From: Mobula hypostoma
Taxonomy: Eukaryota
Reading direction: 5' to 3'
DNA: 64,000 bases
Assembly: GCF_963921235.1 (NCBI RefSeq)
Contig: NC_086108.1
Coordinates: 53,818,001 to 53,882,000, forward strand
Shown piece by piece: positions 7,156 through 60,660 of the stretch (position 1 is the first letter of the stretch; every line of letters starts with the position of its first letter). The translations under genes were made by a program, and so were the position numbers. Under the pieces are notes generated by a model that saw only the letters and a program-made list of their open reading frames with translations, did no database searches and had not been told where the DNA came from.

Positions 7156-7215
7156 ACACACATCAAAGTTGCTGGTGAACGCAGCAGGCCAGGCAGCATC
7201 TCCTGTTGTTGTTGT
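7156..7215 (-). mobile_element. 60-bp Penelope-like pLTR fragment with 13-bp TSD
   Basis: acacacatcaaagttgctggtgaacgcagcaggccaggcagcatct is flanked by ttgtcatggtaca at 7143-7155 and 7216-7228. Confidence 0.75.
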
Positions 7216-14349: not shown

Positions 14350-16630
14350 AACACCACAGATACAGGCCCTTTAGCAGAGCGTCATTTCCTCCCAGCTAGT
14401 CCCAATTTTAAACATTTGTCCCAAACCACCACCCCTCCATGTACCTATCCAAGTGCTCCTTAAATGCCTCAACCATTTCCTCTGACAGCTCATTCCATCG
14501 ACTCACCAACTTCTTCATGAACAAGTTGCCTTTCGGGTCTCTTAAATTTTCCCCTGTCGTTCTAAGTCTGTGCTCTTTAGTTCTGATCTTTCCTACCATG
14601 AGAAAAAGACTTGCCACCCAACTCATCTGACTCAGTTTTAAACATTTTTATCACCTCTCATTCTTCTATGTTCCACTCCTCTTAACTCAGGCCCCCTAGT
14701 CCTGGTAACATTCTTAGAACATAGAATAGTACAGCACAGTACAGGCACTTTGGCCCAGAATGTTGTGCCAATCCTTAAATCCTGCCTCCCATATAATCCT
14801 CCCACCTTAAATTCCTCCATATACCTGTTTAGTAGTCTCTTAAATTTCCCTAGTGTATCTGCCTTCACCACTGACTCAGGCAGTGCATTCCACGCACCAA
14901 CCACTCACTGAGTAAAAAACCTTCCTCTAATATCCCCCTTGAACTTCCCACCCCTTACCTTAAAGCCATGTCCTCTTGTATTGAGCAGTGGTGCCCTGGG
15001 GAAGAAGCACTGGCTGTCCACTCTATCTATTCCTCTTAATATCTTGTATACCTCTATCATGTCTCCTCTCATCCTCCTCCTCTCCAAAGAATAAAGCCCT
15101 AGCTCCCTTAATCTCTGATCATAATGCATACTCTGTAAACCAGGCAGCATCCTGGTAAATGTCCTCTGTACCCTTTTCAATGCTTCCACATCCTTCCTAT
15201 AGTGAGGCGACCAGAACTGGACACAGTACTCCAAGTGTGGCCTAACCAGAGTTTTATAGGGCTGCATCATTTCCTCCCGACTCTTAAACTCTTTTCCTCG
15301 ACTTACGAAAGCTAACACCCCATAAGTTTTCTTAACTACCCTATCCACCTGTGAGGCAACTTTCAGGGATCTGTGGACATGCACCCCCAGATCCCTCTGC
15401 TCCTCCACACTACCAAGTATCCTGCCATTTACTTTGTACTCTGCCTTGGAGTTTGTCCTTCCAAAGTGTACTACCTCACACTTCTCCAGGTTGAACTCCA
15501 TCTGCCACTTCTCAGCCCACTTCTGCATCCTAACCTAGACCTAAGTCACTTGTGTATTCACATCCAAATCGCTTATATAATTAACAAATAACAAGGATCT
15601 CAACATTGATCCCTGAATTCTTAAATCTTGTTTGCACACTTTTTTATTTTAACCATATCCTTCCTATAACAGGATGAACAACACTGTATACAGAACTTCC
15701 AAGTGCAACCTCACAATGAGGAAATGCCTTCTTCTCATTACTCCCATCAGAGGTACAGGAGTCTGAAGATGCACATTCAGTATGTAGGGGACAATTTATT
15801 CATGATCAAATTTCTGAACAGTCTATGAACAGTAAATCACAGTTTTGGCTCTCTTTTTGCACTATTTTGTTTTCTTATGGTAGCATGTGACATTTGTTTT
15901 GTACTATCTGCTGCCATAAAACAACAAATTTCGCAATGTAGGTCAGTGACAATGAACCTGATTCTGACATAAAAGCACAACTCCTATACTCCTTTTACAC
16001 CACCGTGTATCTGTGATGCCTCTTGCAGCAAACTATGCACTCGACACCTCGGTCGCTTGTGTATTCACATCCAAATCACTTCTATAATTAACAAATAACA
16101 AGGGTCTCAACATTGATCCCTGAAGCGCACCACTAGTCAAGAAACAACCTTGGCCACTATCGCCTACTTCACACACTGGGCCAATTCTGAATCTGCCAAA
16201 CTATCTCTCCCTAAATTCTGTAGGGACTGACCTTCCAGAACAACCTACTTTGTGGAATTTTGTCAAAGGCCTAGTTAAAGTTCAGTAGTCAACATCCACT
16301 GCCCTACACTCACCTACCATTTTGGTCACCTCTTCAAAAATAAACTAAAAGTTTCATCGAGCACAACTTCCAACATACAAAGCCATGCTGACTCCCACTA
16401 ATCAGACTGTCTATCCAAATAATACTAGAACCTGGCTCTCAGATGCCCCTACCCTGACTTACTGATGTCAGGCTGACTGACCTCTAGTTCTTTCATTTGT
16501 TGGAACAACATTAGCCGCCTTCCAGTCTTTGCAGCTTCTCCAGTGGTTTACAATGAAGAAAGTATCTTCACTTGGGCCTCTGCAATCTCCTTTCTAAACT
16601 CCCACAAAGTCCAAGGTCGCACTATGTCAG
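14350..16630 (-). mobile_element. old CR1-type LINE (RT to 3' end) hosting nested insertions
   Basis: Minus-strand remnants include SRWNELSEEMVEAFKEHLDRYM and a DFXKAFDK-like segment (tgtcaaaggcctagttaaag). Confidence 0.65.
14717..15530 (-). mobile_element. young 5'-truncated CR1 LINE
   Basis: Open 207-aa ORF: WAEKWQMEFNLEKCEVVHFG...LVRPHLEYCVQFWSPHY...LERRRMRGDMIEVYKI...TRGHGFK. It has a (ttctatg)n tail and a probable TSD attctta at 14710-14716 and 15617-15623. Confidence 0.9.
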
Positions 16631-19269: not shown

Positions 19270-20888
19270 CGGTGGCATACAAATGTTTGGGCATCCCTGG
19301 TCAAAATTTCTGTTACTGTGAGTAGTTAAGTGAGTAGAAGATGAACTGATCTCCAAAAGTCATAAAATTAAAGATGAATCAACCTTTTCAACATTTTAAG
19401 CAAGATTACTGTATTATTTTTGTTTTGTACAATTTTAGAGTGAAAAAAAGAAAGGAGCACCATGCAAGAGTTCGGACACCCCAAGAGACTTGAGCTCTCA
19501 GACAACTTTTACCAAGGTCTCAGACTTTAATTAGCTTGTTAGAGCTATGGCTTGTTCACAGTCATCGTTTGGAAAGGCCAAGTGATGCAAATTTCAAAGC
19601 TTTATGAATACCCTGACTCCTCAAACCTTGTCCCAACAATCAGCAGCCATGGGCTCCTCTAAGCAGCGGCCAAGCACTCTGAAAATTAAAATAAATGATG
19701 CCCACAAAGCAGGAGAAGGCTATAAGAAGATAACAAAGTGTTTTCAGGTAGCCGTTTCCTCAGTTCGTAATGTAATTAAGAAATGACAGTTAACAGGAAC
19801 GGTGGAGGTCAAGTTGAGGTCTGGAAGACCAAAAAACCTTTCCAAGAGAACTGCTTGTAGTTTTGCTAGAAAGGCAAATCAAAACCCCTGTTTGACTGCA
19901 AAAGACCTTCAGGAAGATTTAGCAGACTCTGGAGTGGTGGCGCACTGTTCTACTGTGCAGCAACACTTGCACAAATATGACCTTCATGGAAAAGTCATTA
20001 GAAGAAAACCTTTCCTGTATCCTCACCACAAAATTCAATGTCAGAAGTTTGCAAAGGAATATCTAAGCAAGCCTGGTGCATTTTGGAAACAAGTCCTGTG
20101 GACTGATGAAGTTAAAATAGAACTTTCTGGCCGCAATGAGCAAAGGTATGTTTGGAGAAAAAAGGGTGCAGAATTTCATGAAAAGAACACCTCTCCAACT
20201 GTTAAGCACGGGGGTGGATCAATCATGCTTTGGGCTTGTGTTGCAGCCAGTGGCACGGGGAACATTTCACTGGTAGAGGGAAGAATGAATTCAATTAAAT
20301 ACCAGCAAATTCTGGAAGCAAACATCATACTGTCTGTAAAAAAAAAAGCTGAAGATGAAAATATGGCTTCTACAACAGGATAATGATCCTAAACGCACCC
20401 CAAAATCCACAATGGACTACCTCAAGAGGCACAAGCTGAAGGTTTTGCCATGACCCTCACAGTCCCCCAACCTAAACATCATCGAAAATCTGTGGATAAA
20501 CTTCAAAAGAGCAGTGCATGCAAGATGCCCCAAGAATCTCCCAGAACTGGAAGCCTTTTGCAAGGAAGAATGGGCGAAAATCCCCCAAACAAGAATTGAA
20601 AGACTCTTCGCTGGCTACAAAAAGTGTTTACAAGCTGTGTTACTTGCCAAAGGGGGTGTTACTAAGTACTGACCATGCAGAGTGGCCAAACTTTTGCTTT
20701 GAGACCTTCTCCTTTTTTGTTATTTTGAAACTGTAAAAGATGGAAATAAAAAAGTAATCTTAAAATATTAAAGGAATGTGTCATCTTTAACTTTATGCCT
20801 TTTGGAAATCAGGTCATCTTTTACTCGCTTAGCTATTCACAGTAACAGAAATTTTGGCCAGGGGTGCCCAAACTTTTGCATGCCATTG
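19270..20888 (+). mobile_element. full-length Tc1 (DD34E) DNA transposon with IR/DR ends; transposase pseudogene 19649-20672
   Basis: TA flanks both ends (19268-69, 20889-90). The roughly 220-bp imperfect inverted repeats start cggtggcatacaaatgtttgggca and end tgcccaaacttttgcatgccattg, with inner direct repeats. The protein runs MGSSKQ...GRP...WTDE...QQDNDPK-(34)-E...GGVTKY*, with TGA stops at 19784 and 20451 and a frameshift in the A-run at 20338-20347. Confidence 0.95.
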
Positions 20889-20934: not shown

Positions 20935-21815
20935 AGGAGGAGGAGGAGAAGATGGCGATGCGACGCAGTGCGCGCGGCCACTCCGGTGATGTCTGTTATC
21001 TGTCAAGTAGGATGCTGTGCACAATTCTGATTTGATGGAGACAGACGTGAGAGAGCACGGAGGAACATCTGGAGAAACTTCTGAAATGCCCGCTTCGCTG
21101 CCGCTGCTACTGTGTGGACTGGAATCTCCGGAGCAGAAGGGTCCGAATCCTCGGCTTTGCTTGTTTCGGTAACTGGGGCAGGGTCGAAGGCGCTTGGCAG
21201 AGGATGGCGCTCGGGAGGCTGTATCGGACGGCTGGTCGGAGGCTCAAAGTTTTCAGACGGACTCAGAGTCGGCTATAGTTGGGTGCTTCCAATGCATCGG
21301 CAGTTGTTGGTGCCTGGAGGTTTATGGCAGGGAGAGTTTCTCCCTTTTGCCGCCTGCTATCTGAGACTATCGGGAGTTGATCAGGACTTTGAGATTTTTT
21401 TTTACCGTGCCCATGGTCTGCTCTTTATCAAATTATGGTATTGCTTTGCACTGTTGTAACTATATGTTATAATTATGTGGTTTTGTCAGTGTTAGTCTTT
21501 GGTTAACCAACACACATCAAAGTTGCTGGTGAACGCAGCATCTCTAAGAAGAGGTACAGTCGACGTTTCAGCCTGAAACGTCGACTGTACCTCTTCCGAG
21601 AGATGCTGCCTGGCCTGCTGCATTCACCAGCAACTTTGATGTGTGTTGCTTGAATTTCCAGCATCTGCAGAATTCCTAGCATCTGCAGAATTCCTGTGTT
21701 AGTCTTTGGTTTGTCCTTTTTTTGTGATATCACTCTGGAGGAACATTGTATCATTTCTTAATGCATGCATTTCTAAATGACAATAAACGAGGACTGAGTG
21801 TTCTCATAATCTATA
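20935..21815 (+). mobile_element. CpG-rich non-coding retroposon, probably a non-autonomous LINE derivative (5'UTR joined to 3'UTR)
   Basis: It starts with gaagatggcg, keeps many CpGs and has no RT-like ORF. It ends aaatgacaataaa...taatct, like the LINE tail at 36938-36970. Confidence 0.55.
21505..21695. mobile_element. palindromic Penelope-like pLTR insertion with 16-bp TSD
   Basis: Near-perfect hairpin centred on gtacagtcgacgtttcag-c-ctgaaacgtcgactgtac. The TSD gtgttagtctttggtt lies at 21489-21504 and 21696-21711, and there is an 18-bp tandem duplication agcatctgcagaattcct. Confidence 0.85.
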
Positions 21816-24434: not shown

Positions 24435-24742
24435 GAATGGAAGCATCCTTGGAAAAGAGTAAACAGTCGGATGTTTTGGGCCAGGACCCTTCATAACGAC
24501 TTGGAAGATCTGAAACATTGACTGTTTACTCTTTTCCATAGAAGCTCCCTGGCCGGTTGAGTTCCTCCAGCATTTTGTATGCGTGTTACATTGGATTTCC
24601 AGCATCTGCAGATTTCCACAAACAAGAGAAAATCTGCAGATGCTGGAAATCTAAGCAACGCACACATAATGCTGAAGGAAGTCAGCAGGCTAGACAGCAT
24701 CTATGGAAAAGAGTATAGTCGATGTTTCAGGCCAAAACCCTT
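24435..24742. mobile_element. two Penelope-like pLTR fragments joined tail to tail
   Basis: ...gatttccagcatctgcagattt / aaatctgcagatgctggaaatc... form an inverted pair. The left unit has its own internal hairpin around gacccttcat. Confidence 0.7.
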
Positions 24743-26711: not shown

Positions 26712-27812
26712 TTTTTGGTGAGAGTGCCTTCACTGCTCCCTCATTCAGATTTCAATTTAAAGTGACAGATCAAATCACAATTGCATCTTCAGGACTTGTT
26801 CTGCATTTTAGAGAGGCTCCAGCAACTTATTCTAACTTGCTGCAATTTACATCTTACCAGATTAGGGTAGGGAAGAAATGAGTGAGGCCCTTTCCTCTAA
26901 ACTGGAATTAAGATGCATTTAGCTATAAATAGTTGGGAGTGAGGGGCACATATCTTCCAACAGCCTACCAACTGATACTCTTATAACTACCAGAACTTAT
27001 AAGCTATACTTACCAGATCATAGATAAACTAGTTGTCTGCATGGTGATTTCCCTGTCTACCGATCCTGTAGGGATCTTTGCTAAAATGCTGAATTCTCCA
27101 GATCTCAGCTTCATGCTAGAACGTGCCAGCTCTGACATTAGTAGATAGCCCCTCTATCAACCATGTGGCAACTTCGATCCATGACAACGCAAAGACAGAA
27201 GTACATCTGGTCCTGTTAAACTTACAAATCTTTACTTTTCATCCCTTGCCCATTGTTTTGCTACTAACAGCCTTTATGATATAATGACAATTCACTCGGG
27301 GTTTATTTCTATGTTTAACCACAATATTTTTTTATTGGCAACTGGATTGCACTCTCTTTGCGGCCCAGGCCCTGCTGAGACTAGATGCTTTCCTGTATTT
27401 AGGTAATTTCAACCCATTTTCCAGGACCAGTGAGTGATGAAGCTAATTTAGCAGTGAATGACAATCTTGCTCTGAACTGCCAAGGGAATGTCTGGTGTGG
27501 AAATGTGAATTTACTTTGGTGGAGTGGCTGTTCCTCTGAACCTGGGCCAAGGCATATTTTTGGAGGGCAATGGAAGGAGCAGGGGAATGCTCGATACTGA
27601 CAGTGACTGCAAAGAATAAAACCTCTTGTTACTTATGTTACCTCAAGCAATGCACACTTACAAAATAAACATCAGTAGTGAAAAACCTGTGGCATTTATA
27701 AGTTAAGCAAGAGAGGTTTTATATTTCCTTGTAAGGATATGAAGTATGTTTGACTCATGTTCAGGGTTAATATTATAGACATTAATAAGTATTTCCTTTT
27801 GGTTTCCTCCAG

Positions 27813-27881
27813 GAACAGATTTACCAGATGATACTCAGTTGCAGCAATCCACCCCAGCATGGAACAGTTCCAGTGATTCAG
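27813..27881 (+). CDS. ROR1: ROR1 exon 2 (69 bp, phase 1/1), N-terminal linker before the Ig domain
   Basis: Polypyrimidine tract and AG (tttccttttggtttcctccag) precede it, and a strong donor CAG|gtaagc follows. It reads xTDLPDDTQLQQSTPAWNSSSDS and splices in frame to exon 3 to give ...[19 protein letters not shown]. This resembles human ROR1 ...PTSSWNISSELNKDSYLTLDEPM (recalled). Confidence 0.85.
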
Positions 27882-34668: not shown

Positions 34669-36365
34669 ATCTTTCAAGAAAACATTCTAATGTTCTGCAC
34701 ATTGATTCAAAACAAACACAGAAGAAGATTGAGATTCAGATTCATTTATTTATCACATGTCCAGTGAAATACATCCTTTGCATTAACAACCAGCTATAAG
34801 AGACGTGGTCTTTTTGACTACAATTATCTGATGCCATTACACAGTGATGGGTAATCTTGCCAGTTTTGCTCTCCTTGTGTGAGAATGGGGAGAACTCTGA
34901 AACCGACCAGTACTAATAAGATTGAAAATGTTCTATGGTAGAGGTACACACAGTACTAGTGAATAGTCATAATTATAAATCAATTCCCTGGCCCCCTCAC
35001 TTGAGACGTCTCCATGTCTATGTTACAGAGTGGGTGTAACATTGGTAAAGCCCTATTTAGCCCAGGCAATATTAATATATTGCCATGCTAACTGTCCTAT
35101 CACTGATTGTTTGGTGAACAGGAATGACTGATTTTGCGCTGTATATATTAGATCGCTGATGTCTGCCAGCCTGACTGCCCTGTTAGCATTAATGCTTAGC
35201 TTTAAACATAGCTACGATGGGCTTGATTTCCTCCCGTACTAATGGTGCGGCACGAGTTAGGGTGCGTACCTAACCCAGAACTTCATGCGTAGGGTCATTG
35301 GTCAAGTTGATCATGGAGGCTACCACATTTAAGCCTTTGTACTTCAACTTCCTCACATCAATCAGACATTTTCTTTGTGAACCATGCGACAGTAACTAAT
35401 TTTTACACATCGCAGATCAAAAGATCTCCTGCTGCAGAGTAGGGACCAACCCCAGAGTCTTAATGTCCTTTTCAAAATATTGTCTTGGCTCTTTACAGTT
35501 CGTGGGCTCATTTTGTACATAAAATTGGTGCTGCTTTTCATACATTTCAATCGAATTTTCTTGGATATAAAGCCATTTGGGAAAACTGAGGTTATAAAAG
35601 ATTCATAGTGTATTTTTCCTTTCCCCTTAATACCCTTTATGGATTAAATCTTTATTGGTGCTTAGCAACTGTACTGGGAAAACTGTTGTACTGGGAATAC
35701 TGATATTTACTTGAAGCATATAAGGGTGACGCCCATGGAATTGTCCCCCCGCCTGAGTAGGTATCTCCATGAGAGAAAATAGCTGGAGGAAAATGTGACT
35801 GAACTAAGTAACTGGAGTAACTGAAATGTAGAAGCTATTTTTTTAATTTAAAAAGTTGTAACAGCCCAAAGTCCCTGCAGAATCTGAGATAAGTTTAAAG
35901 TGAAGCAAGCACTGCATATGGCTGCCAACACAAACCCAGCAGAGAATTAGCTTATGTTCTGAATAAAGTTGCTGTGGAAAATGTAAAGCATTTCTTTGTG
36001 GTATAAAACAAAGAATGGTTGTTCTGGGGTTAATTCTCAACAGAAAGTAACAGGGGGTGGTTGGAGGGAGGGAATTGAGAGCTGAATTTCTAAATGATTT
36101 TAATTAAAATTACCATTGTGCACTATAAAGATTCTCTGTCTGCAGTGAGGGGATCTCAGATTCATCTTAATAAATAAATATCATTAATTAGTTAGATTCA
36201 GTATATTGGCAAATTAATTCTCTGATGTTGGAACAGTGGCAAAGGAGTTTTTTAATCAGGTGTTATATGTTGGATGAAAAATTTTTAAAAACTGCAGATG
36301 ATGGAAATTTTAAACCAAAAACAGAAAATGCTGTAAGTATTCAGCAGGTCCAGTTGCTTCTAAGG

Positions 36366-37547: not shown

Positions 37548-37703
37548 AATAACATGCACAACACGCTGGAGGACCTCAGCAGGTCGGGCAGCATCCGTGG
37601 AAACAAACAGTCAACATTTCCACGGATGCAGCACGACCTGCTGAGTTCCTCCTGCGTGTTGTGCGTGTTGCTTTGACCCCAGCATCTGCAGGGTATTTTG
37701 TGT
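37548..37703. mobile_element. palindromic Penelope-like pLTR insertion with 9-bp TSD
   Basis: The arms gcacaacacgctggaggacctcagcaggtcgggcagcatccgtggaaa and tttccacggatgcagcacgacctgctgagttcctcctgcgtgttgtgc are inverted. The TSD cagcaataa lies at 37539-37547 and 37704-37712. Confidence 0.8.
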
Positions 37704-39054: not shown

Positions 39055-39342
39055 ATTATTATCTAATCCTTGATGAGCCAATGAATAATATCACAACATC
39101 ACTTGGTCAAACTGCAGAGCTGTACTGTAAAGTGTCTGGCAATCCGGCACCTACCATCCGATGGCTGAAGAACGACGCTCCAGTTGTCCAGGAGCCACGG
39201 AGGATATCCTACCGACTAACTAACTATGGCTCCCGCCTACGAATACGAAACCTCGACACCACAGACACAGGTTATTTCCAGTGTGTGGCAACAAATGGGC
39301 AAAAGACTGTGTCAACTACAGGCGTGCTTTTTGTCAAATTTG
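39055..39342 (+). CDS. ROR1: ROR1 exon 3 (288 bp, phase 1/1), Ig-like domain
   Basis: Acceptor ctgcttttcag and donor G|gtaaga. It translates (D)[95 protein letters not shown](G), nearly identical to the ROR1 Ig domain. The motifs [29 protein letters not shown] and LFVKFG are ROR1-type rather than ROR2-type. Confidence 0.97.
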
Positions 39343-40567: not shown

Positions 40568-40652
40568 ATACACACAAACTACTGGAGAAATTCAACAGGT
40601 CAGGCAGCATCTGTGGAGGGAAATGAACAGTTGACATTTTGGATCAAAACCT
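40568..40652 (-). mobile_element. decayed Penelope-like pLTR fragment
   Basis: actggagaaattcaacaggtcaggcagcatctgtggagggaaatgaacagttgacattttggatcaaaacct. Confidence 0.6.
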
Positions 40653-40995
40653 GTCATACTTCCAGAGATATATGCACACCTGATCTGATTTACACTTCAG
40701 ATGTGCATCAGATTACACACAACGTAATCTGATGCCCATCTAATTATATCAGTCTCCATGGAACACCCCATTTGGAACATAACACGGAAATTAAACTGGT
40801 GTGGATGATTGTTGATCATACACAGAATTGTATAATTATTCAGTATAACCTGCCTGCATTAATCCTCCATATATCTTTTAAATCTGGTCTAGGATAAATA
40901 TCATACTTCTTACCCTTTATTAACCTACCCGCACTAAACTATGGTACTGTTTTCACCACCTCCCTTGGTCACCGCCCTTACCTTCTATGCAAGTG

Positions 40996-41540: not shown

Positions 41541-42145
41541 CAGGGGTCCCCAACATTTTTTGCACTGCGGACCGGTTTAATATTGACAATATTCTTGCGG
41601 ACCGGCCAACTCGGTGGGTGGGGGGGGGGTGTTAATCGCGACCGGAATATAGGTGATAAGTCAATAGCATCATAACATTTTAAGTAACGTTTAGATATTA
41701 AACACACAGCGCATATTTTCCTCGAATGAACATATAAAATCATTGCAACACACCAATATCGTTGAATCAGTGGGAGCCCTGGGCTTGTTTTCCTGCAACA
41801 AGACGGTCCCATCGAGGGGTGATGGGAGACAGCGATACTCGAAGGGGGTTCCTTATGTCCAGTCTATTCTGCAATTTAGTTTTTGTTGCATTCATTGCAT
41901 AAAACTCCGCTTCGCAACGATATGATGTTGGAAATAGAAGCAACGTTTTCAGTGCTTTCGTGGCTATCTCAGGATATTTAGCCTTGACTTTGATCCAGAA
42001 TGCCGGCAGAGATGTTATGTCAAACATACTTTTCAGCCCGCCATTATCTGCAAGCTCGAGGAGTTGATCTCCTTCCCGCGCTGACATGGATGATGCGCGG
42101 GTAATGACCTCGCGTGCATTCAAGTTCAACAGTGCGCGTGACAGG
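41541..42145 (-). mobile_element. hAT transposon (Buster/Charlie group), 3' end with transposase C-terminal dimerisation domain
   Basis: The TIR caggggtccccaac starts at 41541. The minus frame gives DQLLELADNGGLKSMF..SLPAFWIKVKAKYPEIATKALKTLLLFPTSYRCEAEF..TKTKLQNRLDI..LRVSLSPITPRWDRLVAGKQAQGSH* (ZBED5/SCAND3-like). Confidence 0.88.
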
Positions 42146-42149
42146 GATC

Positions 42150-42330
42150 TTCTGGGAGAAGTGGGATGTCTGCATACATCAAAACATGCAGCAAAGTGCA
42201 TTGTTTGCATTAACAACCAATACAACCTAAGCATGTGCTCGGGGCAGCCTGCTAGTGTCACTGCACATTCTGACACCACCATAGCATGCCCACAGTGTTC
42301 AGCAGAACAACATAAGCAACAACAACATAA
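42150..42330 (-). mobile_element. SINE 3' part
   Basis: Reverse complement of the 17900-18040 SINE tail (gtgggcatgctatg...tgcactttgctgcatgttttgatgtatg). Confidence 0.55.
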
Positions 42331-44089
42331 CAATGGCAACAAAACACATGCACATGCACAAAATCTTCTCCTGATCCTCTGACTGGCTCTGGCCTTGAGC
42401 TCCCCATTAATCCATCTGTCTTCCCCCACTCTTTCTCTATGATCAGCCCAGGCCCATTACACAATGATTTCCCACAGACCTTTCTCTCACTACACTGCCC
42501 ATCTGTGGCAGAACACCTGATCATTGAACCAACCTGACCTTGACTCTCAGGCCACTTATCCTTACCTTCTACCCTGCAACCACTAGTCATTTACCTGATT
42601 ATCTACTCTCGCTCCCTCCTGGTCTGCCTGGAGCCCACATGGGACTGAGGCAGCACACTTTCATTTGAAAATGTGCAGAGCTGATTCAGTATTGCCTCAG
42701 GCCTGGGCTTAAGGCAGTAGAGTTCCTGACACTATAACTACCCATAGCATTTGTAGGACACTGCACAATTTTTAGGCTAAGGATTTTAAAATATTACAAA
42801 AGGAATATGTTGATAAAACTAAATAATATTGGTTTAAGTGGGATTTATTTTCCCTTTAGTGTATTGCTTTGCAGTTAGTAACCTTACTTTACAAGACTAG
42901 ATCTGTGGCTGCAGTTCTCCCTTTGTGGTGCCACAGTGCATTTTGCTATGGTTATAATTTAAATCTCTTGCACCCCAAGGGCTCAGTTGTTCAATGAGTC
43001 ACTTCATGAGTTTGAGCCACTGATGCCAGACTGGTCCCAATTTTTAAATCTTTTTTTTGTGTTGCATTAGCTGATCTGACAAGCTGTTAGCAATCTCATT
43101 GATACTGGATTAAAAAGTGAAAAATAAAGTCAAACAGTTGTTGTCATTCCTGATCATTGCATCATGATTCCTGGTGTGGAGTTGAGAACGGGTTTGGGCT
43201 TGAAATAAATATTAAAGGGTTGGAAATCCTGTACCATCTTGCATGCGAGAAATGGACTAGGATACCACATGATATTCCAGTCAAAAGAAAAATCTCTTTT
43301 TCTTTAAAGAGGAGTCTTTGATTTCTTTTTAAATGTAAATTCAAAAGAACAAAATGGAGGAAGTAGAATGTGAAAATTTCCCTCTCATTGGTAGCACCCG
43401 ATTTTGGTGTGGAGGAGGTATAGGAATTACTGGCCTGTAATAAAATCTTGGAGCACATCTGCAACCCATCCATTGTTCACTTTTCATTCACACTTGTAGC
43501 TCTGAGGAGAGGTGGTGAGTGAAAATTTAACACTTTTCCTAGATGAGGGAATGGAAATCCTATGCAATTTTTTTAAAATCTTCAAGCTCATCCCAACCCC
43601 CACTAATACCCTTGTCATCTGCTTTTAGTATAGCACTGGCTGAGGTCTGGAAGATATTTTCCTACCTTGACCAAGTATGGTAAGTGATTTTGAGAAGGAT
43701 CAGGAGAGAAAAACAAAGCTTTTTCTTAAGTAGCTGTAAGGTTATATTGTATGGTGGCTAAATTTATGCACTGCAATCAGAGAATGGAGTTGGGTCACAT
43801 TTGTCACAACTTCCCCCTTTTCCACCACCGTTCATAAGTTGGTACAGGATGGCTGCGTCTGAAATTACAGATTATCTATGGTGAATCAGTTCTGAAGTGG
43901 AAATTATTCTAGCTGAGTGCAAGAAAACATTTTAAAAATTCTAACACCCTGTTTTGTTGATTAACCCCCCCACCCCCGCACTGAAGTGACTTATTTCATA
44001 AACAGAAGTGTAGATAACAAAAGCAGGGAGGTAATTTTGAATCATTATAAAGGAACTGGTTAGCTTACAGTTAAAACAGAGGTACAGGG

Positions 44090-44495: not shown

Positions 44496-46099
44496 AATAA
44501 ACAAGTTAAATAAGGAATACTGCCTCCAGTTCTAATAATCTCACTTCAGAGTGTTGAAGGCATCAGAGATGCTATAAAAAAAATTTTACTTGAATGGCCC
44601 CAGGAATAGAGGATTTCAGCTTCAAAGTCAGACAAAAAAAAACAACTAGGGCTGTCCTGTTTGGAATAAAAAGGTTGAGAGAAGAGCATGGCATGTTTAA
44701 ATAAGATGTTGTAGAGATGTGTTCCCATTGGCAAATGGCTTATAGACCAGAGGACAAACTTTCAAATTGAAAGGCTGATGAAAGTGAATGATTATGATCC
44801 GGAATTCACTGCTTGTTAAGGATTTCAAAAGTGAACTGGGCATTTGAAGGAAAATAATAATCAGGGCTAAGGAGGAAGAGCAGGGGAATGGGACTGCTGG
44901 GATTACTCTGCCGAGAGCTGTTACATACTCAGGGAGCTGAATAGCCTCTTAAAATAATTTGATTACTTACCTGAACATGACCATAAGAACTAAGGTTCAT
45001 TTTAGTATTTCTGCTGCTGTATTAATGTATCTTCTCATCATCTGATATCCTTGATCCTCTGTGGCTGCATGAACTGCTACATTCAACATCCAAAAAGATT
45101 CTAACTTTAAGCATAATTATGAATATTGTTCAAAATTACAAGAGGCTAGATCTATGGGGACATGGGCAACAACATTCTGAGTGAATGAAACTTTTGAGAC
45201 ACAGCTCTGTGTACGGCTTCTATCTCACTATTACCAGACCTTTGAATGGACCTCTCATATGCTAAAGAATAAACTCTTGATCTCCCAATCTACCTCTTAG
45301 TGGTCCTTGCGTGTTATTTCTCTGCTTTGTATTGCATCTTCTCTGTAACTGCAACACTGTATTCTACAGTGTTTTCTTTTTGAAAACCTCAGTGTAATTA
45401 TCTATAGCATGATCTGCCTGGAGAGCATGAAAAACTAAAGGTTTTCACTGTATCTCGGTATAGGTACCAATAATAATCCAACACCAATAGATTCCTTTTG
45501 CATGTCTAACTATTTTAACTTTTTTTCCAATTTCAGTTCCCCCTCCCCACATGCATACACCCTTCCTAAGGCCTGATGGGTTCCTTCTGACTTCTGCTAT
45601 CTTTGTATTCTTTGTAATGGAAGTTCATCAAATGAGACAGCTAGGGAGCAGAGAGAGCATTAGCAAATGTAATCCTATTCTTGCCTTTGCATATTCAACC
45701 AGTTAACATTCAGTGGTGGCATGTAGACAGCTAGATTTCTGCTCCTGTCCTTCCCAGCCCATGATCTGAATGAACGACATCCTCCTACTGAATGTGGCTC
45801 GATTAACTCAACATGAGTCTGGAATTTAACATGGAATCTTTGTCTCCATGTGGGTCGGTTCCACACTGGATAATACATCCAACTGTTAGTCCAATAGTCA
45901 ATGGAATATTTTTCCAGAAAACATCTGTCACTGATAAACTTCATTCTTTACACCAAGCTCTGATTTTCAATGCTTTGACATGAATCAAAGTGTGAAGCAA
46001 CAGATACCTGAAGATAAATAAAACCAGAATAAACAGAGAATGAGGAAAAAAAATCACTCAGCTCAAGAATATTAACTCTCTGTATTTCCCTCCTTGCAG

Positions 46100-46136
46100 G
46101 ACCCCCACCGACTCCAAATTCAGGCAAGGCAACGCA
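46100..46136 (+). CDS. ROR1: ROR1 exon 4 micro-exon (37 bp, phase 1/2), Ig-to-CRD linker
   Basis: Acceptor tttccctccttgcag and donor CA|gtgagt. It reads (G)PPPTPNSGKAT(H/Q), matching ROR1 'FGPPPTASPG'. The phase-2 end agrees with the mammalian ROR1 exon 4/5 junction as recalled. Confidence 0.88.
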
Positions 46137-46554
46137 GTGAGTATTCGTCTACATATTGTTACCTATTTCCAGAGCTAACATTCATCGGGCATTCTTACTT
46201 CAGGCATACACAGTTGTACTTAAAGAGTTTCAAGGAACTTGGAAAATGGCATGGGGTTATTTTCAATAAGTTTAAAACATTCTTTCTTTTAAAGCAATCA
46301 TTTGTACATTGTTTCATTTGCAACCCGTTCGATATTGTTTTGCCAGTCTTTAAAAATGCTTTACTATGGTCCTTGCTTGTGATGAAACAAATTGCAATCG
46401 GGCCACAGTACTTGCTGTAGTGGTGGGCATTTGTTTCTCATGCTTTCACATATGATAATAAGACTGCTTAGTCTGTATGTTATTTTCTTCTCTTCTCTGT
46501 CAATGTTTTCTGCTTTCCAAAAAGTAGGTATTAATGATGGAGCTTTTACATCTT

Positions 46555-48599: not shown

Positions 48600-49188
48600 A
48601 CTTTCGCTCCACCTGCAACAAGGGATTTCCTGGTAGCCAACCATTTTAATTCCACTTCACACCCCTAATTTTCTGGCCTCTTCTACTGCTACAACTGAGG
48701 CCTCTCTCAGATTGGAGAAGCAATGCCTCATATTCTGTCTGGGTAGCCTCCAACCTGATGGTATGAACATTGATTTCTATATCACCCGGTCATTTATTCC
48801 CCCCCTTCTTTTTTTCCATTCCCCATTCTGACTCCCCTTTTTATCCCTTCTCTTCACCTGCTTATCACGTCCCTCCTCTTTCCCTTTCTCCCAGTGTCCA
48901 CTCTCTTCTTCTATCATATTCCTTCTTCAGCCCTTTACCTTTTCAAATGATCACATCCCAGCTTCTCACTTCAATCTCCCTCCCCGCCCACATACCTTGT
49001 CCCTCATCTGGCTTCACCTAACACCTTCCAGCTTGTGCTCCTTCCCCACATCCGCTTTCTTATCTAATGTTCATACCCTTCCTTTCCAGCCCTGATGAAG
49101 GATCACAGCCCAAAATGTAAAATGTCTATTCCTCTCCATTTTGTGTGTGTTACCCTGGAGTTCCAACAGCTGCAGAATCTCTTGTGGT
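48600..49188 (+). mobile_element. decayed Penelope-like element 3' end (GIY-YIG C-terminus plus pLTR)
   Basis: VANHFNSTSH...EASLRLEKQCLIFCLGSLQPDGMNIDF is followed by a pyrimidine tract, a degenerate hammerhead cagccCTGATGAaggatcacagcccAAAAtgt and the shared 3' end. Confidence 0.75.
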
Positions 49189-49974
49189 TATATATTGTTT
49201 TCCTTTCCTTCTTTCTTCACTATGTAAATAAAAATTGCAGTTGTAAATCAGGTGTCCCTCAGATTTGTGCTGAAGAAATGGCTGAAACATTTACAACCAT
49301 GTTCAGCCAGAAATGCCAAGCTGATCAGTTGATTATTTCTTATATGATACCTATCATTACAAAGGCCAGTCTCCAGTTTATTCATTCCATGAGAAATTAA
49401 GAAGCAGCTGAGAGCACTGGATACCAAGAAGGTGATGGAACCAGACAATATAAGACCATGAGATTATAGGAGATAGGAGTAGAATTGGGCCAATTGGTCC
49501 ATTGAGTCTGCTCCGCCATTTCATCATGGCTGATCCATTTTCCCTCTCAACCCCATTCTTTGCCTTGTCCCTGTAACTTTCATGCCCTGACTAGTCAACC
49601 TCTGCCTTAAAATACACAAGTGCCTAGCCTCCACAGCCATCTGTGGCAAAGAATTCCACAGATTCACCACCATCTGGCTGAAGAAATTCTTCCACATCTC
49701 CATTTTAAATGGGCATCCCTCTATTCTGAGACTGTGCCCTTTGGTCCTGGACTCCCCCACTATAGGAAACATCCTCTCCACATCCACTCTATCTAGACCT
49801 TTCAAAATTCGGTATGTTTCAATGCGAACCCCGCCCCCCCCCCCCCCATTCGTCCAGTGAGTCCAGGCCCAGAGACATCAAACACTCCTCATACAATAAT
49901 CCTTTCATTCCTGGAATCATTCTCATGAACCTCCTCTGAACCCTCTCCAGTGTCAGCACATCCTTTCTCACTTT

Positions 49975-50068
49975 CTCAACAACACACAAAAATGTTGGAG
50001 GAACTCAGCAGGTAAGACATCATCTGTGGAAATAAATTAACAGTCGACATTTTGGACCAAGACCCTTT
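49975..50068 (-). mobile_element. Penelope-like pLTR fragment nested in a CR1
   Basis: caacacacaaaaatgttggaggaactcagcagg...cagtcgacattttggaccaagaccctt. The host LINE resumes on both sides at cctttct. Confidence 0.7.
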
Positions 50069-51893
50069 CTTAGATAAAGGTCCTAAAACCGCTCACAATA
50101 CTCCAAATGAAGCCTCACCAGTGCCTTATGAAACCTCAACATTACATCTTTGCTTTTATATTCTAGTCCTCTCAAAATGAATGCTAACATTGCATTTGTA
50201 TTCCTCACCAGCAACTCAACCTGCAAGTTAACCATGAGGACTTTCAAGTCCCTTTACACTTTGGATTTTTGAATTTTCAGTTTAATCAGAAAATAGTCTA
50301 TGTATTTGTTCCTTCTACCAAAGTTCATGACCATACACTTCCTTACACTATATTCTATATGCCATTTCTTTGGCCATTCTCCTAATCTGTCTTAAATCCT
50401 TCTGCAGACTCTTGGCTTCCTCAGCACTATATACCACTCTACCTCTCTTAATATCGCCCACAAATGCAGAATAACACTCATCACTGGCAACCATCCAGAA
50501 AAGGCTCTGTTTATTCCCACTCTTTGTCTCCTTCCAATCAGCCAATCCTCTGTCCATGCTAATACCTTTCCTGTAATACCATGGACTCTTGTTAAGCAGC
50601 CTCAGGTGTGGCACCTTGTCAAAAGCCTTCTGTAAATCTCACAACACCAACTGATTCTTATTTGTCTATCCTGCCTGTTATTTCTTCAATGAATTCCAAC
50701 AGATTTCTCAGGCAAGATTTTCCTTTGAGGAATCCATGCTGACTGTGCCCTATTTTATCATGTGCATCCAAGTAACCCGAAACCTCATCTTTAATAATGG
50801 ACTCCCAATATCTTCCCAGCCACTGAGGTCAGGTTAACTGGCCTATAATTTTCTTTCTTCTGCCTCCTTCCCTTCTTGGAGTGATATTTGCAATTTTTCT
50901 GTCCTCCAGAACCATGCCAGAATCTAGTGATTTTTGAAAGTTTATTAGTGAGTCCACAGTCTCCCCAGCGACCTCCTTCAGGACCCTGAGATGCAGTCTA
51001 CCTGGCCCAGGTGACTTATCCACCTTCAGACCTCTGAGCTTACCAAGCACCTTCTCCCTAGTAATAGCAAATGCACTCTCTCCTGCCCCCTGACACTCTC
51101 AAACTTCTGGCATACTGCTAATATCTTCCACAGTGAAGATTGATGCAAAATACTTATTCAGTTTGCCCGCCATTTCCTTGCTCCACATTGCTAACTCTCC
51201 AGTTTGCAATGTCCAATATCTACCCTCACCTCTCTGTTACTCTTTAAATATCTGAAAAAACATTTGGTATCCTCTCTGATATTATTCAATAGCTTTCCTT
51301 CATATTTCATCTTTTCCCACCTTATGGCTTTTTAGTTGCCTTGTTGGTTTTTAAAAGCTTCCCAGTCCTCTAACTTTCCACTAAGTTTTGCTATATTTTT
51401 GCCCTCTTTTTGCTTTTATGCTATCTTTGACTTCCCTTGTCAGCCATGATTCAACACTTGTTCTTTGGGAAGTATTTATCCTACGCCTTCTGACTTTCTC
51501 CCAGAAACTCCAGCCATTGCTGTTCTGCTGTCATCCTTGCTAGTGACCACTTCCAATCAATTTCGGCCAGCTCCTCTTTCATGTTTCTAAAATTCCCTTT
51601 AATCCACTGTAATACTGATACATCTGACTTTAACTTCTCCCTCTCAAATTGCAGGGGGAATGCTTCATAGGGGTTCTTTTACCTCAAGCTCCCAAATCAA
51701 ATCCAGTTCATTAGACAACACTCAATCAAGAATAGCCTTTTCTGGAGTGGACTCAACCACAAGCTGATCTAAAAAGCCATCTTGTAGACCTTTTGCAAAT
51801 TTTCTCTCTCTTGGGATCCAGCACCAAACCTGATTTTCCCAATCTATCTGCATATTGAAGACCTCTATGACTATCCTAACATTGCGCTTTTGA

Positions 51894-52116
51894 ATTTAAA
51901 AACACAAACACAAGGAAATCTGCAGATGCTGGAAATTCAAGCAACACACACAAAATGCTGGTGGAACGCAGCAGGCCAGGCAGCATCTATAGGAAGAAGT
52001 ACAGTTGACGTTTCGGGCCGAGTCCTGATGAAGGGTCTTGGCCCGAAACGTCGACTGTACCTCTTCCTATAGATGCTGCCTGGCCTGCTGCGTTCACCAG
52101 CATTTTGTGTGTGTTG
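51894..52116. mobile_element. young palindromic Penelope-like pLTR insertion with 13-bp TSD
   Basis: Inverted arms of about 80 bp. The TSD attgcgcttttga lies at 51881-51893 and 52117-52129, and the insertion interrupts the CR1 APE region. Confidence 0.9.
52021..52056 (+). ncRNA. minimal type I hammerhead ribozyme motif, core intact
   Basis: AGUC (stem I) - CUGAUGA - A - GGGU/CUUG/GCCC (stem II) - GAAA - CG - UC^ - GACU (stem I'). Predicted cleavage is after C52052 (GUC), and stem III is the palindromic ACGU. Confidence 0.8.
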
Positions 52117-53568
52117 ATTGCGCTTTTGACATGTGTTTTCCATCTCCCATTGTAATTTGTAGCCTACATCCTGCCTACTGTTTGGTGGTCTGTATGTAAC
52201 TCCTATCAGGGTCTTTTTACCCTTACAGTTTCTAAACTCTACCCACAAAGATTCTACATCTGATCCTATGTCACCTCTTTCTCAGGATTTCATTTCATTC
52301 TTCCAGCCCCTCTGCCTAACTGCCTGTCCTTTTGATATAATGTGTATCCTTGGATGTTAAGCTCCATATAATGATCTTCATTCAGCCATGACTCAGTGAT
52401 GCCCACAACATCATACCTGCGAATCTATCACTGTGCCACAAGATCATCTACCTTATTCCATATGCTACATGCATTCAACACTTTCAGTCCTGTATTTGTC
52501 ACCCTTTTTGACTTTGTTCCCCTATTACATTGCAACTCCTCACAGCTAAGGACTTGAACACAAGATCTACCTGCACTTCTAGCCAAGCTGTTTCAGGAGT
52601 GGGAAAATGTTACTTTCAATGTAAACATGCAGGAAAATGGTCAAATGTGTCATGTTTTCAAAGAGCAGGACAAATCCTATCCGTTTAATTACTGCCCAGC
52701 AATCCATTTCCATTCATCAGCATAGTGAAGGAAGGTGTTATTGGCAAAGCAGTCAAGTATTGTTTACTCACCAATTATCTGCTCACTGATACCATATTGG
52801 GGTTCACCTGAACCGCTCAGCTCTGGACCTTATTGAACCCTAGGTCCAAAGATGAACCAAAGAACTGGAATTCAGGTGCGAGGGGAGATTGACCGTCCTT
52901 GATAGAAAGGCAAGATTTGACTGAGTGTGACATCAAAGGCCCATGGTAAAACATGGTATCGGGGGAATGAACTGCAGCGCTTAGAATCATACTCACACAA
53001 AGGAAAATGGTGATTTTTGCTGTAAGAGGTCATCCAACAGTGCACTGAGACATCACTGCAAGAGTTCCTTCCAGCAGTGTCTTTGGCCTAACCATATTCA
53101 TCAATCTCCTTCTTTTCATTACAAAGGCAGGAGGAAGATATCTGGTAATTGTGCAGTGTTCAGTTCATTTGCAATCCTTCAGTAAATGAAGCAGTCTATC
53201 AGTGTATGCATTAAGACCCAGGCAATACACAAATATGGTCTGATAGGTGGCAGAGTACCAATTTCAAGAATCTTATAGCAAATAACAGCAGTGCCACTTG
53301 AGACTTTTTTTCAAATCTGGTAAATGTTACAATAACAACAGCCCCAGTCAGTTCCAGGTACACCAGGAGCTCTACTGCTCAGTAATATTTGCCCATGGTG
53401 CTTGTCTTATGTGGCTGTAAAAGATGAAATCCCACAGGCTGCCCAGTGATAGCCTCTGAACTTATCTTCATTTGACGTCCATACACAATTTCCAATGAAT
53501 TGTGCTGGATATGAAAGGCTTGCTGATATTCACCTCTCTTAACTCCACACATCAAGTATCACTTTGGC

Positions 53569-54139
53569 AAACACGAGAAAATCTGCAGATGCTGGAATTT
53601 CAAGCAACACACATAAAAGTTGCTGGTGAACGCAGCAGGCCAGGCAGCATCTCTAGGAAGAGGTACAGTCGACGTTTCGGGCCGAGACCTTTCGTCAGGA
53701 CTAACTGAAAGAAGAGCTAGTAAGAGATTTGAAAGGGGGAGGGGTAGGGGGAGATCCAAAATGATAGGAGAAGACAGGAGGGGGAGGGATGGAGCCAAGA
53801 GCTGGACAGGTGATAGGCAAAAGGGATATGAGAGGATCATGGGATGGGAGGCCTAGGGAACAAGATAAGGGGGGGGGAAGCCCAGAGGATGGGCAAGGGG
53901 TATAGTGAGAGGGAGAGAATGAGAGAGAAAAAGAATGTGTGTATATAAATAAATAAATAATGGATGGGGTACGAGGGGGAGGTGGGGCATTAACAGAAGT
54001 TTGAGAAGCCAGTGTTCATGCCATCAGGTTGGAGGCTACCCAGATGGAATATAAGGTGTTGTTCCTCCAACCTGAGTGTGGCTTCATCTTTACAGTAGAG
54101 GAGGCCATGGATAGACATATCAGAATGGGACGTGGAATT
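53569..54139 (-). mobile_element. young 5'-truncated Penelope-like element (GIY-YIG C-terminus 54139-53990 plus pLTR)
   Basis: The minus frame NSTSHSDMSIHGLLYCKDEATLRLEEQHLIFHLGSLQPDGMNTGFSNFC* is uninterrupted and is followed by a pyrimidine-rich tract, a hammerhead and the shared 3' end. Confidence 0.85.
53667..53702 (-). ncRNA. minimal type I hammerhead ribozyme motif
   Basis: The minus strand reads AGUC-CUGACGA-A-AGGU/CUCG/GCCC-GAAA-CG-UC^-GACU. The first stem II pair is an A-C mismatch. Confidence 0.72.
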
Positions 54140-54886: not shown

Positions 54887-56330
54887 GATAGATAGAAAGA
54901 CAGGTAGATACTTTATTGATCCCAAGGAAATTACCGTGTCACAGTAGCATTACAAGTGCACAGGTATAAATATTAGAAGAGAAGTAGAAAGAATAAGAAA
55001 TAAGTTACCACGAACAGTCTAACAGGAGGGGGGCATCAGTTCCCCGGCTATAGGTTGACTCATTATACAGCCTTATGGCCGAGGGTCAGAATGACCTCAT
55101 ATAGTGCTCTTCGGAGCAGTGCAGTTGTCTTAGTCTATTACTAAAAGTGTACCGCTATTCAGCCAAGGTAGTACGCAGAGGGTGAGAACCATTGTCCAGA
55201 ACTGCCAGAACTTTACGTAGGGTCCTTTGTTCTACCACAGCCTCCCCACAACAGACAGGTAGAATATGTGAAGGAGAGGCCTGAATACTCCAAAGCACTT
55301 CCGTCTCCTCAGAAAGTAGAGGTGACTCTGGCCCTTCTTGTACACAGCCTCTGTGTTAATTCTCCACTCAAGTCTGTCATCCAGGTGCGCCCTCAGGTAC
55401 TTGTAGGTCCTCACTACATCCATGTCCTCACCATCAATAGTAACAGGGAGCAATGCAGGCTTAGTTTTCCTAAATTCCATCAACATCAAATTTGTCAAAT
55501 GGTGCAAGCTGAATCATCTGTAGCACAACATCACCAAGACAAAGTCCTTCACCAGAGCCCTGTATTCATCTTCTTGTCCCCCCTTTATACACCTAACTAC
55601 TGCTGAGTCATCAGAGAATTTCTGCAGACGCCATGACTCAGTGTTGTATCTAAAGTCCGAGGTATACAGGGCAAACAGGAAGGGAGCCAGTACAGTCCCC
55701 TGTGGGGCCCCAGTGCTGCTTATAGCCATGCCTGATGCATTGCTCTGAAGCCGCACAAACTGTGGTCTGCCAGTCATGTACTCCATTATCCAGGATACAA
55801 TGGAACTACCAATCTGCATTGAATGAGCTTTTGCTGCCAGCAATGAGGGCAGTATGGTATCGAAGGCACTAGAGAAATCAAAAACCACGATCCTCACAGT
55901 GCTGCCCTCCTGATCCATATGGGAGTGGGCACTGTTCAGCAGGTCGATGACAGCGCCGTCAACTCCAGTGTGCTCCTGGTAGGCAAACTGTGAGCAATTG
56001 AGGGTTGATCTGACCAGGGATCGGAGTTGAGCTAGGACCAGCCTCTTTAGGGTCTTCATGATGTGTGAAGTCAGGGTCACTGGAAGGTAGTCATCCAAGA
56101 CTTTCGGTTGGCCCTTTTTGGGTACTGAGACCACACACGATGTTTTTCACACGGTTGACCCTTTCCAGGCTGAGGCTCAGTTTGAAAATGTGTTGGAGAA
56201 CTCCACACAACTACTCAGCACACTCCTTCAGGACCTTGGGGTTCACACCATCCGGTCCCAATGCTTTGCCATGTCTGAGTTTCCCCAGAACCCTTCTCAC
56301 CTGCTGAGATACTGCCTGACCAACCTGTGT
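54887..56330 (-). mobile_element. Rex1/Babar LINE RT and 3' end
   Basis: ORF 55514-56134 reads DYLPVTLTSHIMKTLKRL...QFAYQEHTGVDGA...FDFSSAFDTI...STGAPQGTVLAPFLF...KFSDDSAVV, and there is a (tcta)n tail at about 54890. Confidence 0.92.
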
Positions 56331-56980: not shown

Positions 56981-58586
56981 CAGTGCCTTGTAAAAGTATT
57001 CAGCTCCCAACAGAAAACATTGTTTATGTAAGTGAGTATTACAACCAGGGATTTTGATCAACTTAACTGAGAATCTTTATTTGTGAATCACATGCTCTTT
57101 TGCACAGTGGAGCCTAAAAGACGGGGAAAACTTTAAAAACTGAAAAGCTAAAAATTGAAAGACTGAAATGTCAGCAGTTCAAAAGTATTCATGCCCCTTT
57201 GCTCAGTACTTAGCTGAACCCCCCCCCCCCATTACAGCTATTACAGCCAGTGGCTTTTTCCGATAAGTCTCTATTGGCTTTGCACAACATGATGGAGCAA
57301 GATTTGCCCATTCCTCCTTGGAAAGTTGCTCAAGCTGTGCCAGGTTAGTTGGGTAGCAGTGGCGGACAGCAATCTTGAGATCTTGCCAAAGATTGGGGTA
57401 AGGTTAAGGCTCTGACTGCTCCATTTAAGGATATCAATTTTCATCATTTAAAGCCTCTCCATGTTTGCTCTGACAGTGTGCCTTGGGTCATTATCCTGCT
57501 GAAAGACGAACTTCCTCCACAGTTTAAGCTTTCTGGCAGAGGCTAGCAGGTTTTCATCCAGGATCTCTCTGTATTTAGCAGCATTCATCTTCCCATCAAT
57601 CCTATCTGGATTTTCAGTTCCTCCTGCTGAAAAACATCCCCACAGCATGAAGCTATCTCCACCATACTTTACAGTAGGGATGGTGTTATTTGGCTGATGT
57701 GCAGTATTAGATTTACACCTCACGTACCACTCAGTGTTGAGGCCAAAAATATTCCACTTTAGTCTCATCGACCACAAGACCTTCTTCCACATCTTTACAA
57801 TATCTTCTAAATGATGCTTTGCAAAGTCTTTACAGGCAAGGATATTTTTTTTTAAGCCAGAGATTCTTCTCTGCCACTCTTCCACGAATACCCTTTTTGT
57901 GCAAGGACTTAGAAATTGTGGAGCCATGAACTTCATCTCCAGTTGCAGCCACTGACTTTTGCAGGTGTCTCAGAGTGATTTTTGGCATCACAGTAGCCTC
58001 TCTTATGAGTGTCATTCTTTTCCAGCAACTAAGTTTATCGGGACAGCCTAATTTAGACAGTGTGGCTATGGTTTCATATTTTCTGCTTTTCTATGATGGA
58101 CTGCTCTGAGCCTTGAGGTATGCTTGGTGCCTTTGAGATGGTCTTGTACTCGTCCTCCGATTTGTGTTTTTCTATTATCATTTCTCTGACTTGCCTTGAA
58201 TGCTCTTTTGTCTTCATTTTGGTTTGGTCTGTTGAAAATCTACCATACTGTTGGACCTTACAGAGAGAGGGGGTATTTATTCAGGTGATCCTCCAATTTT
58301 CTACATCAACAAATTGGATAGTTTGTAAGGTAGTATATAGTATTGCACCTGAGGAAAATTACTGTAGTAATTACAAAGAGAATGAATGTTTTATCAGCCT
58401 CACAATTTTGGTTTTTAATTTTAGTACATTGTTTACAGATTTTGGAATTTTTGTTTTGATTGACATGATGCATAATGTTTTGTAGATTACCACAAAAAAT
58501 CCTACGTCAATATATTTTAAAATTTTTAAATGGGGAAGTAAAATGTGAAAATATTGGTGGGAGCTGTATGTTTTTTCAAGGCAATG
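56981..58586 (-). mobile_element. full-length decayed Tc1 DNA transposon; transposase pseudogene about 58217-57203
   Basis: TA flanks both ends (56979-80, 58587-88). The TIRs are cagtgccttgtaaaagtattcagctccca and tgggagctgtatgttttttcaaggcaatg, with an inner DR aaaagtattca at 57181. The protein runs MKTKEHSRQVRE...TVKYGGDSFMLWGCFS...FQQDNDPRH...GSAKY*. Confidence 0.92.
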
Positions 58587-59329: not shown

Positions 59330-60660
59330 ATATAACCATATAACAATTACAGCACAGAAACAGGCCATCTCGGCCCTTCTAGTCTGTGCCGAATGCTTAC
59401 TCTCACCTAGTCCCACCGACCTGCACTCAGCCCGTAACCCTCCATTCCTTTCCTGTCCTTATAGCTATCCAATTTAACTTTAAATGACAATATCGAGCCT
59501 GCCTCTACCACTTCTACTGGAAGCTCATTCCACACAGCTACCACTCTCTGAGTAAAGAAGTTTCCCCCTCATGTTACCCCTAAACTTTTGCCCCCTAACT
59601 CTCAACTCATGTCCTCTTATTTGAATCTCCCCTACTCTCAATAGAAAAAGCCTATCCATGTTAACTCTGTCTATCCCCCTCATAATTATAAATACCTCTG
59701 TCAAGTCCCCCCTCAACCTTCTACGCTCCAAAGAATACAGACCCAACTTGTTCAACCTTTCCCTGTAACTTAGGTGCTGAAACCCAGGTAACATTCTCGT
59801 AAATCTTCTCTGTACTCTCTCTATTTTGATGACATTTCCTATAATTCGGTGACCAGAACTGTACTCAATACTCCAAATTTGGCCTTACCAACGCCTTGTA
59901 CAATTTTAATATTACATCCCAACTCCAATGCTCAATGCTCTGATTTATAAAGGCCAGCATACCAAAAGCCTTCTTCACCACCCTATCCACATGAGATTCC
60001 ACCTTCAGGGAACTATGCACCATTATTCCTAGATCCCTCTGTTCTACTGCATTCTTCAATGCCCTACCATTTACCATGTATGTCCTATTTTGATTAGTCC
60101 TACCAAAATGTAGCACCTCACACTTATCAGCATTAAACTCCATTTGCCATCTTTCAGCCCACTCTTCTAGCTGGCCTAAATCTCTCTGCAAGCTTTGAAA
60201 GCCTACTTCATTACCCACAATGCCACCGATCTTAGTATCATCTGCATACTTATTAATCCAATTTACCACCCCATCATCTGGATCATTAATGTATATGACA
60301 AACAACATTGGATCCAGTACAGATCCCTGAGGCACACCGCTACACACCGTCCTCCAATCTGACAAACAGTTATCCACCACTACTCTCTGGTGTCTCCCAT
60401 CCAGCCACTATTGAATACATTTTCCTATTTCAATATTAATGAAGGAATGCTAATAAAGGAACGATTGAACCTTCCTAACTAACCTTCCGTGTGGAACCTT
60501 GTCAAAGGCCTTACTAAAGTCCATATAGACAACATCCACCGCTTTACCCTCATCAACCTTCCTAATAACCTCTTCAAAAAATTCAATAAGATTTGTCAAA
60601 CATGACCTTCCACGCACAAATCCATGTTGACTGTTCCTAATCAGACCCTGTCTATTCCAG
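59330..60660 (-). mobile_element. 5'-truncated CR1 LINE RT and 3' end
   Basis: SGVPQGSVLDPMLFVIYIND...KYADDTK...WAERWQMEFNADKC...LVRPNLEY and LERRRLRGDL. Confidence 0.92.

Follow-up and report, generated by a model that had tools for sequence, protein, structure and literature searches.

A hammerhead motif beneath a hairpin in ROR1 intron 4 of Mobula hypostoma: a probable by-product of Penelope-like integration

The 223 bp at 51894-52116 of the window (the whole 64,000-nucleotide stretch of DNA analysed) are very probably a single insertion of a Penelope-like retroelement, consisting of two head-to-head 3′ ends within a 13-bp target-site duplication (TSD), with the hairpin that they lay over a hammerhead motif being a neutral by-product of integration. 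The duplication, the match of the arms to the pLTR end of intact elements encoding reverse transcriptase (RT) and GIY-YIG, the tail on one arm and the abundance of the layout are all observed. The locus, in intron 4 of ROR1, is real, ordinary and in line with the published pattern, as one of tens of thousands of copies. By itself it is of little weight, though it shows the Penelope insertion signature cleanly. The family to which it belongs also bears on whether minimal hammerheads ever cut host pre-mRNA.

Anatomy of the insertion

51881..51893, + strand: left copy of the target-site duplication, 13 bp, identical to 52117-52129
51894..52022, − strand: inverted arm, a tailed, 5′-truncated Penelope-like 3′ end beginning within hammerhead stem II (alignment to the full-length copy L096)
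52021..52116, + strand: sense arm, an untailed, 5′-truncated Penelope-like 3′ end from hammerhead stem I (aligning at ~90% identity with full-length copies at their pLTR end)
52117..52129, + strand: right copy of the target-site duplication, 13 bp, identical to 51881-51893
51200..52540, − strand: host repeat split by the insertion, a decayed LINE-like coding region with approximate limits (high repeat depth in DNA contigs; contiguous flanks in paralogues)

That 51894-52116 is one insertion follows from the 13-bp duplication around both arms taken together with two paralogues of the host repeat, L093 and L088, in which the 13-bp motif is single and the flanks are contiguous. The arms overlap by 2 nt (AG, 52021-22), and the tail is the 48 nt of the inverted arm that run past the end of the sense arm (51894-51941). 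Aligned to the pLTR plus the start of the ORF, the inverted arm has 87.5% identity. Between themselves the two arms differ by 3 substitutions and 1 indel over ~82 columns (~95% identical), two of the changes being of CpG type, as is expected for a decaying copy. In folding, 51941-52116 is one hairpin, and the minimum free energy for 51894-52116 is −165.8 kcal/mol.

By likeness the host repeat is a putative CR1-type endonuclease region; Pfam gave no match on two short stop-free pieces of its flanks. Repeat copies dominate both the contigs from four DNA-type runs (85% likeness) and those from two DNA runs plus two runs guessed to be RNA (98%), and none of the listed pieces spans the insertion site. 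In contigs of three other organisms repeat copies likewise dominate, and no listed piece bridges the orthologous site. Contig joints that skip the insertion in the 85% likeness set probably stem from other copies of the host repeat and are not counted as empty alleles.

The host gene

46099..46138, + strand: ROR1 micro-exon 4, the upstream edge of the host intron (GPPPTPNSGKATQ between AG and GT; peptide shared with P0002 and P0003)

Two shark proteins named ROR1 share 98% and 97% identity with the Ig exon, and a paralogue on another contig is nearer to the solved human ROR2 (137 vs 123 bits); at E<=1e-20 the Ig exon retrieved no ROR entry from the PDB. Exon 1 lies ~176 kb upstream of the window (64% identity, E=5e-4). 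Exons 2 and 3 fall within the window, near 27810-27880 and 39055-39342 respectively, while exon 5 is ~31 kb beyond its end, near +95,085 when the window coordinates are extended. Given these exon positions, the hammerhead motif at 52021-52056 is on the sense strand of ROR1 intron 4 (~49 kb), where the sequence-only reading had placed it on the + strand.

The hammerhead motif

52021..52056, + strand: candidate minimal type I hammerhead motif (stems I and II of 4 bp each, an additional A following A9, loop III absent, predicted cut 52052/52053)
51999..52020, + strand: segment of the inverted arm paired in folding with 52039-52060 (22 bp including two G-U, within a longer stem)

Read from the letters, stem I is AGUC (52021-24) with GACU (52053-56), CUGAUGA occupies 52025-31 and the additional A is 52032. 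Stem II is GGGU (52033-36) with GCCC (52041-44) around a CUUG loop. GAAA follows at 52045-48, then C52049-G52050 without a loop III, these lying within the palindrome ACGU (52048-51), and GUC at 52050-52 with the cut predicted at 52052/52053. The conserved core (CUGANGA, GAAA, NUH) with stems I and II is, on evaluation of both sequence and structure, that of a minimal type I hammerhead of the kind borne by Penelope-like elements (PLEs). A chance match is excluded for the core, since the reversed-pattern controls accompanying exact-pattern counts on the 3.48-Gb assembly were 0. The copy retains all core letters, with changes at tolerant positions (N7, loop II), and was singled out by the sequence-only reading for its intactness; its departures from intact elements are U7 and a loop U, both CpG-type transitions.

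As positions 15.2 and 16.2 are adjacent, a monomer of the motif is unable to form stem III. Dimer cleavage is said to have been studied by Lunse et al. In the excerpted parts of Cervera and De la Pena 2014 (PMC4209133), which define the metazoan PLE minimal hammerheads, a tested monomer was uncleaved and dimers were weakly cleaved. The PLE-type features listed there are all found here, namely an extra nucleotide between 9 and 10.1 (A52032), the G10.1-C11.1 pair (G52033-C52044) and palindromic 15.2-16.2 without a helix III loop, in addition to the shared catalytic core and short helix I. Stem II differs, having 4 bp in the ROR1 motif and 7-8 bp in Schistosoma; and, compared with the motifs described in those parts, most of the ROR1 core is covered by its own antisense arm.

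The sequence-only reading thus fares well on what it saw, since the core residues, stems, extra A and palindrome are as it had them. Its attribution to Penelope-type elements agrees both with these features and with the match of the arms to the pLTR of elements encoding RT and GIY-YIG, and the complementarity that it noticed between the upstream arm and the 3′ half of the ribozyme is the 22-bp pairing above. The segment so paired comprises the 3′ strand of stem II, GAAA, the cut site and the 3′ strand of stem I. The covariance-model check that it proposed went the other way: Rfam gave zero hammerhead families at E<=10 in 50000-54000 or at gathering score in the window, and its weak miRNA-family matches reflect only the long hairpin.

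The parent family

Five copies elsewhere (L095-L099) were chosen for open frames of 1043 aa. The motif is in both pLTRs in three of them and in the 3′ pLTR only in the other two. In L095, L096 and L098 the motif occurs in each of two direct repeats of 660-1170 bp, the partial-tandem arrangement of pLTRs. The full-length L096 also shows the layout of the ROR1 locus, with the tail on an inverted arm upstream and none at its 3′ end. In the ORF, Pfam places RVT_1 at 582-697 (E=6e-5) and then GIY-YIG at 946-1002 (E=0.002), both below curated cut-offs; Atlas neighbours of the ORF at 0.97 carry RT, GIY-YIG and HTH_animal, and a PDB search with the ORF gave no match. A single ORF with RT followed by GIY-YIG is characteristic of EN+ Penelope-like elements, as is, at the ROR1 locus, an inverted 5′-truncated copy with a one-sided tail and a TSD.

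A non-LTR retrozyme was considered and rejected. Retrozymes are head-to-tail tandem units each with a hammerhead; here the pair is head-to-head with one whole core, and the family is tied to an autonomous ORF.

At least five frames of 1043 aa are uninterrupted in L095-L099, and flanking repeats are up to 99% identical, from which the parent family would appear to be young and possibly active. Its commonest core is CUGACGA, with a G-U pair at 10.1-11.1. A literature search for hammerhead ribozymes in shark Penelope elements found nothing relevant, and was too thin for the family to be called undescribed.

Abundance and layout

Exact counts in the assembly give 44,267 intact cores, 1,521 matches to the core variant of the ROR1 intron 4 copy and 64,413 matches to a downstream anchor. 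Fold-back junctions so tight that the antisense arm is <=10 nt from the core number 73 genome-wide. Among the first 30 of these the tail is on one arm only in all 30 (left only in 14, right only in 16), a flanking direct repeat of at least 9 bp is present in 16, and median arm identity is 90%. Core letters have been lost in 21 of the 30; GAAACGTC is kept in the other nine, with a perfect stem I in three. Near the start of contig C1, 14 of 51 cores of the window's variant have an inverted arm within 600 nt. An independent sample of 68 arms taken by the anchor on that contig (G000:C1) has an inverted partner within 640 nt for 22, which represent 17 insertions, and the tail is again one-sided in 22/22; about 15 of the 68 arms extend to the edge of the 640-nt view. 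With one-sidedness at 30/30 and 22/22, the family is useful for asking how an inverted arm and a one-sided tail arise.

Mode of integration and known systems

How could one insertion event yield two opposed 3′ ends, only one of them tailed? The element's endonuclease may nick both target strands 13 nt apart, with each nick priming reverse transcription, one from a distal and the other from a proximal internal start site. Two different start sites would leave the tail on one side. Each cDNA would then end prematurely around the hammerhead's 5′ edge, and the two be joined over 2 nt of microhomology. A published alternative is that of Arkhipova et al. (PMC3846280), who, in the portion of their paper drawn on here, attribute junctions of this kind to self-priming on an antisense template.

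The layout has close precedents. The same portion of PMC3846280 describes two pLTRs with an inverted pLTR beside them, a 31-bp tail that may be present at one end, and a TSD of 8-10 bp, and the excerpt of Craig et al. 2021 (PMC8557442) gives the layout of inverted pLTR, one-sided tail and TSD as typical. The EN+ Penelope insertion units of those accounts (Arkhipova et al. 2013; Craig et al. 2021) share with the ROR1 locus a head-to-head inverted 5′-truncated copy beside a direct copy, a tail at one end and a short TSD, and with its parent the order pLTR-ORF-pLTR and RT then GIY-YIG. However, the ROR1 copy is reduced to 129 + 96 nt of 3′ end without ORF, its TSD is 13 bp (8-10 bp in the rotifer examples) and its tail is 48 nt (30-40 in the published parts).

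For Poseidon of Anolis carolinensis the relevant passages of Frangieh et al. 2024 (PMC11167929) report that both target strands are cut and extended in vitro, and that two RT start sites bound the tail. Cutting and extension of both strands in this manner would yield the layout at the ROR1 locus. The hammerhead within the pLTR shortly before the ORF start and the two 3′ ends that bound the tail are also shared. According to those passages the lizard ribozyme is active only with protein, with zero reads ending at the cut site. Unlike Poseidon, the parent ORF here has a linker rich in cysteines preceding the endonuclease, and in this motif it resembles the Neptune and Nematis clades.

There are also amniote intronic hammerheads, in RECK and C10orf118, which the excerpts of PMC6155905 and PMC10761166 describe as conserved across classes and active in cells. 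Like the ROR1 motif, they are type I hammerheads that lie in a vertebrate intron on its sense strand. In contrast, the ROR1 motif is a repeat copy among tens of thousands, lacks a monomeric stem III and has no sign of conservation.

Masking of the core and its tolerance

Does the hairpin matter to ROR1? The sequence-only reading proposed a latent self-cleaving motif held off by its own arm, a cage that could explain tolerance or serve as a folding switch. The holding off is what folding predicts; the two roles are not supported. In a secondary-structure model, imposing stems I and II while the core stays open makes the fold less stable by ~40 kcal/mol for the whole insertion and by 31 for the nascent prefix to 52056, compared with 2.5 once the arm is removed, so masking of the core by the arm is expected to be permanent in effect. 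Being transcribed first, the arm would pair with the core in ROR1 pre-mRNA and preclude cleavage of the intron 4 copy, which would anyway be near-inactive as a monomer and be lost with the intron. A cage is not needed to explain tolerance, since the motif alone is unable to form stem III. Further, the arm came with the same insertion event, as the 13-bp duplication attests, the layout is common genome-wide and most tight fold-backs have lost core letters. ROR1 even has an uncaged intact sense core, in intron 1.

An improbable reading, though the best placed of the alternatives, is that the hairpin arose by insertion and selection then acted: unpaired intact sense cores in introns would be mildly harmful, through dimerising and cutting pre-mRNA, and arm-masked ones would survive more often in genes. 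In the 291-kb ROR1 unit, intact cores number six on the sense strand and three on the antisense strand. The six sense cores are possible dimer partners within one transcript, and for five of them an antisense arm lies upstream, 1 to 3,251 nt away. The strength of the predicted masking would suit such selection, and a preprint (10.64898/2026.07.22.740005) reports hammerhead-bearing retrozyme copies to be under-represented in Xenopus introns. However, in a genome sample (every second of the first 80 listed intact cores, in the first 4.9 Mb of C1, irrespective of gene context) 22 of 40 cores have an antisense arm that lies no more than 5 kb upstream and extends into the core, against which the 5/6 in ROR1 is not significant (one-sided Fisher p=0.20; 0.29 excluding the intron 4 copy). 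The five masked cores lean towards the tolerance idea, yet are too few to count. The sixth, near 53,812,511 on G000:C50, 5.5 kb before the window, has no antisense arm in the 5 kb searched on each side, and intron 1 tolerates it. Also counting against selection are the sheer number of intact cores in the genome, and activities that the excerpted reports put as weak even in dimers (PMC4209133) or dependent on protein (PMC11167929). Its bolder extension is that head-to-head integration is a built-in safety catch for Penelope-like elements, intact sense-strand cores in introns persisting mainly when masked by their own inverted arm, as unmasked ones pair within one long pre-mRNA and cut; this we regard as a quite unlikely conjecture. 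The intron 1 core is a natural uncaged control.

Very improbable is a domesticated switch, by which refolding under some condition would free an active ribozyme to cut ROR1 pre-mRNA. An intact core on the sense strand with the arm immediately adjoining invites the thought, and domesticated intronic hammerheads do exist in amniotes (RECK and others, in the excerpt of PMC6155905). However, the modelled gap of 31-40 kcal/mol makes two states implausible, monomeric stem III is absent, the copy sits within a decayed repeat with its ~95% identical arms undergoing CpG-type decay, and many loci have the same layout.

Barely credible is that the junction is the ribozyme's own cut, with element RNA cleaved by the hammerhead and folded back at that end: junctions do cluster around the motif, but while 14 of the 68 anchor-sampled arms start within 10 nt of C3 only 2 start within 3 nt of the cut site, and at the ROR1 locus both arms begin upstream of that site, by 32 nt (sense) and ~17 nt (inverted). 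The clustering at the 5′ edge of the motif rather than at the cut might reflect RT pausing or a protein footprint, both of which are guesses.

Neighbouring copies

53568..53702, − strand: neighbouring copy of the same family, extending further 5′ (one mismatch in stem II of its core; complementarity of 91% with 52021-52114)

This copy lies 1.5 kb downstream and could act as another antisense partner for the whole sense arm, a situation comparable to inverted Alu pairs. Intron 4 also has two younger head-to-head insertions of the family, L092 and L093 (G000:C50, window-extended 75,717-76,908 and 90,045-93,536), in both of which the two arms have intact cores, the tail is one-sided and the TSD measures 14-15 bp. 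The second of them (90,045-93,536) would give a hairpin of ~1.3 kb in ROR1 pre-mRNA.

Older fragments of the same or related families lie in the window at 7154-7201, 9118-9199, 10730-10853, 21508-21677, 24463-24742, 36288-36353, 37551-37691, 40570-40657, 49137-49189 and 49976-50067; several of these are likewise fold-backs, with cores decayed or missing. The open frames at 19787-20383 (+), 57448-57969 (−), 41767-42456 (−), 14905-15534 (−), 59865-60407 (−) and 55514-56146 (−) are presumably fragments resembling Tc1-type transposase, other DNA transposons and LINE reverse transcriptase.
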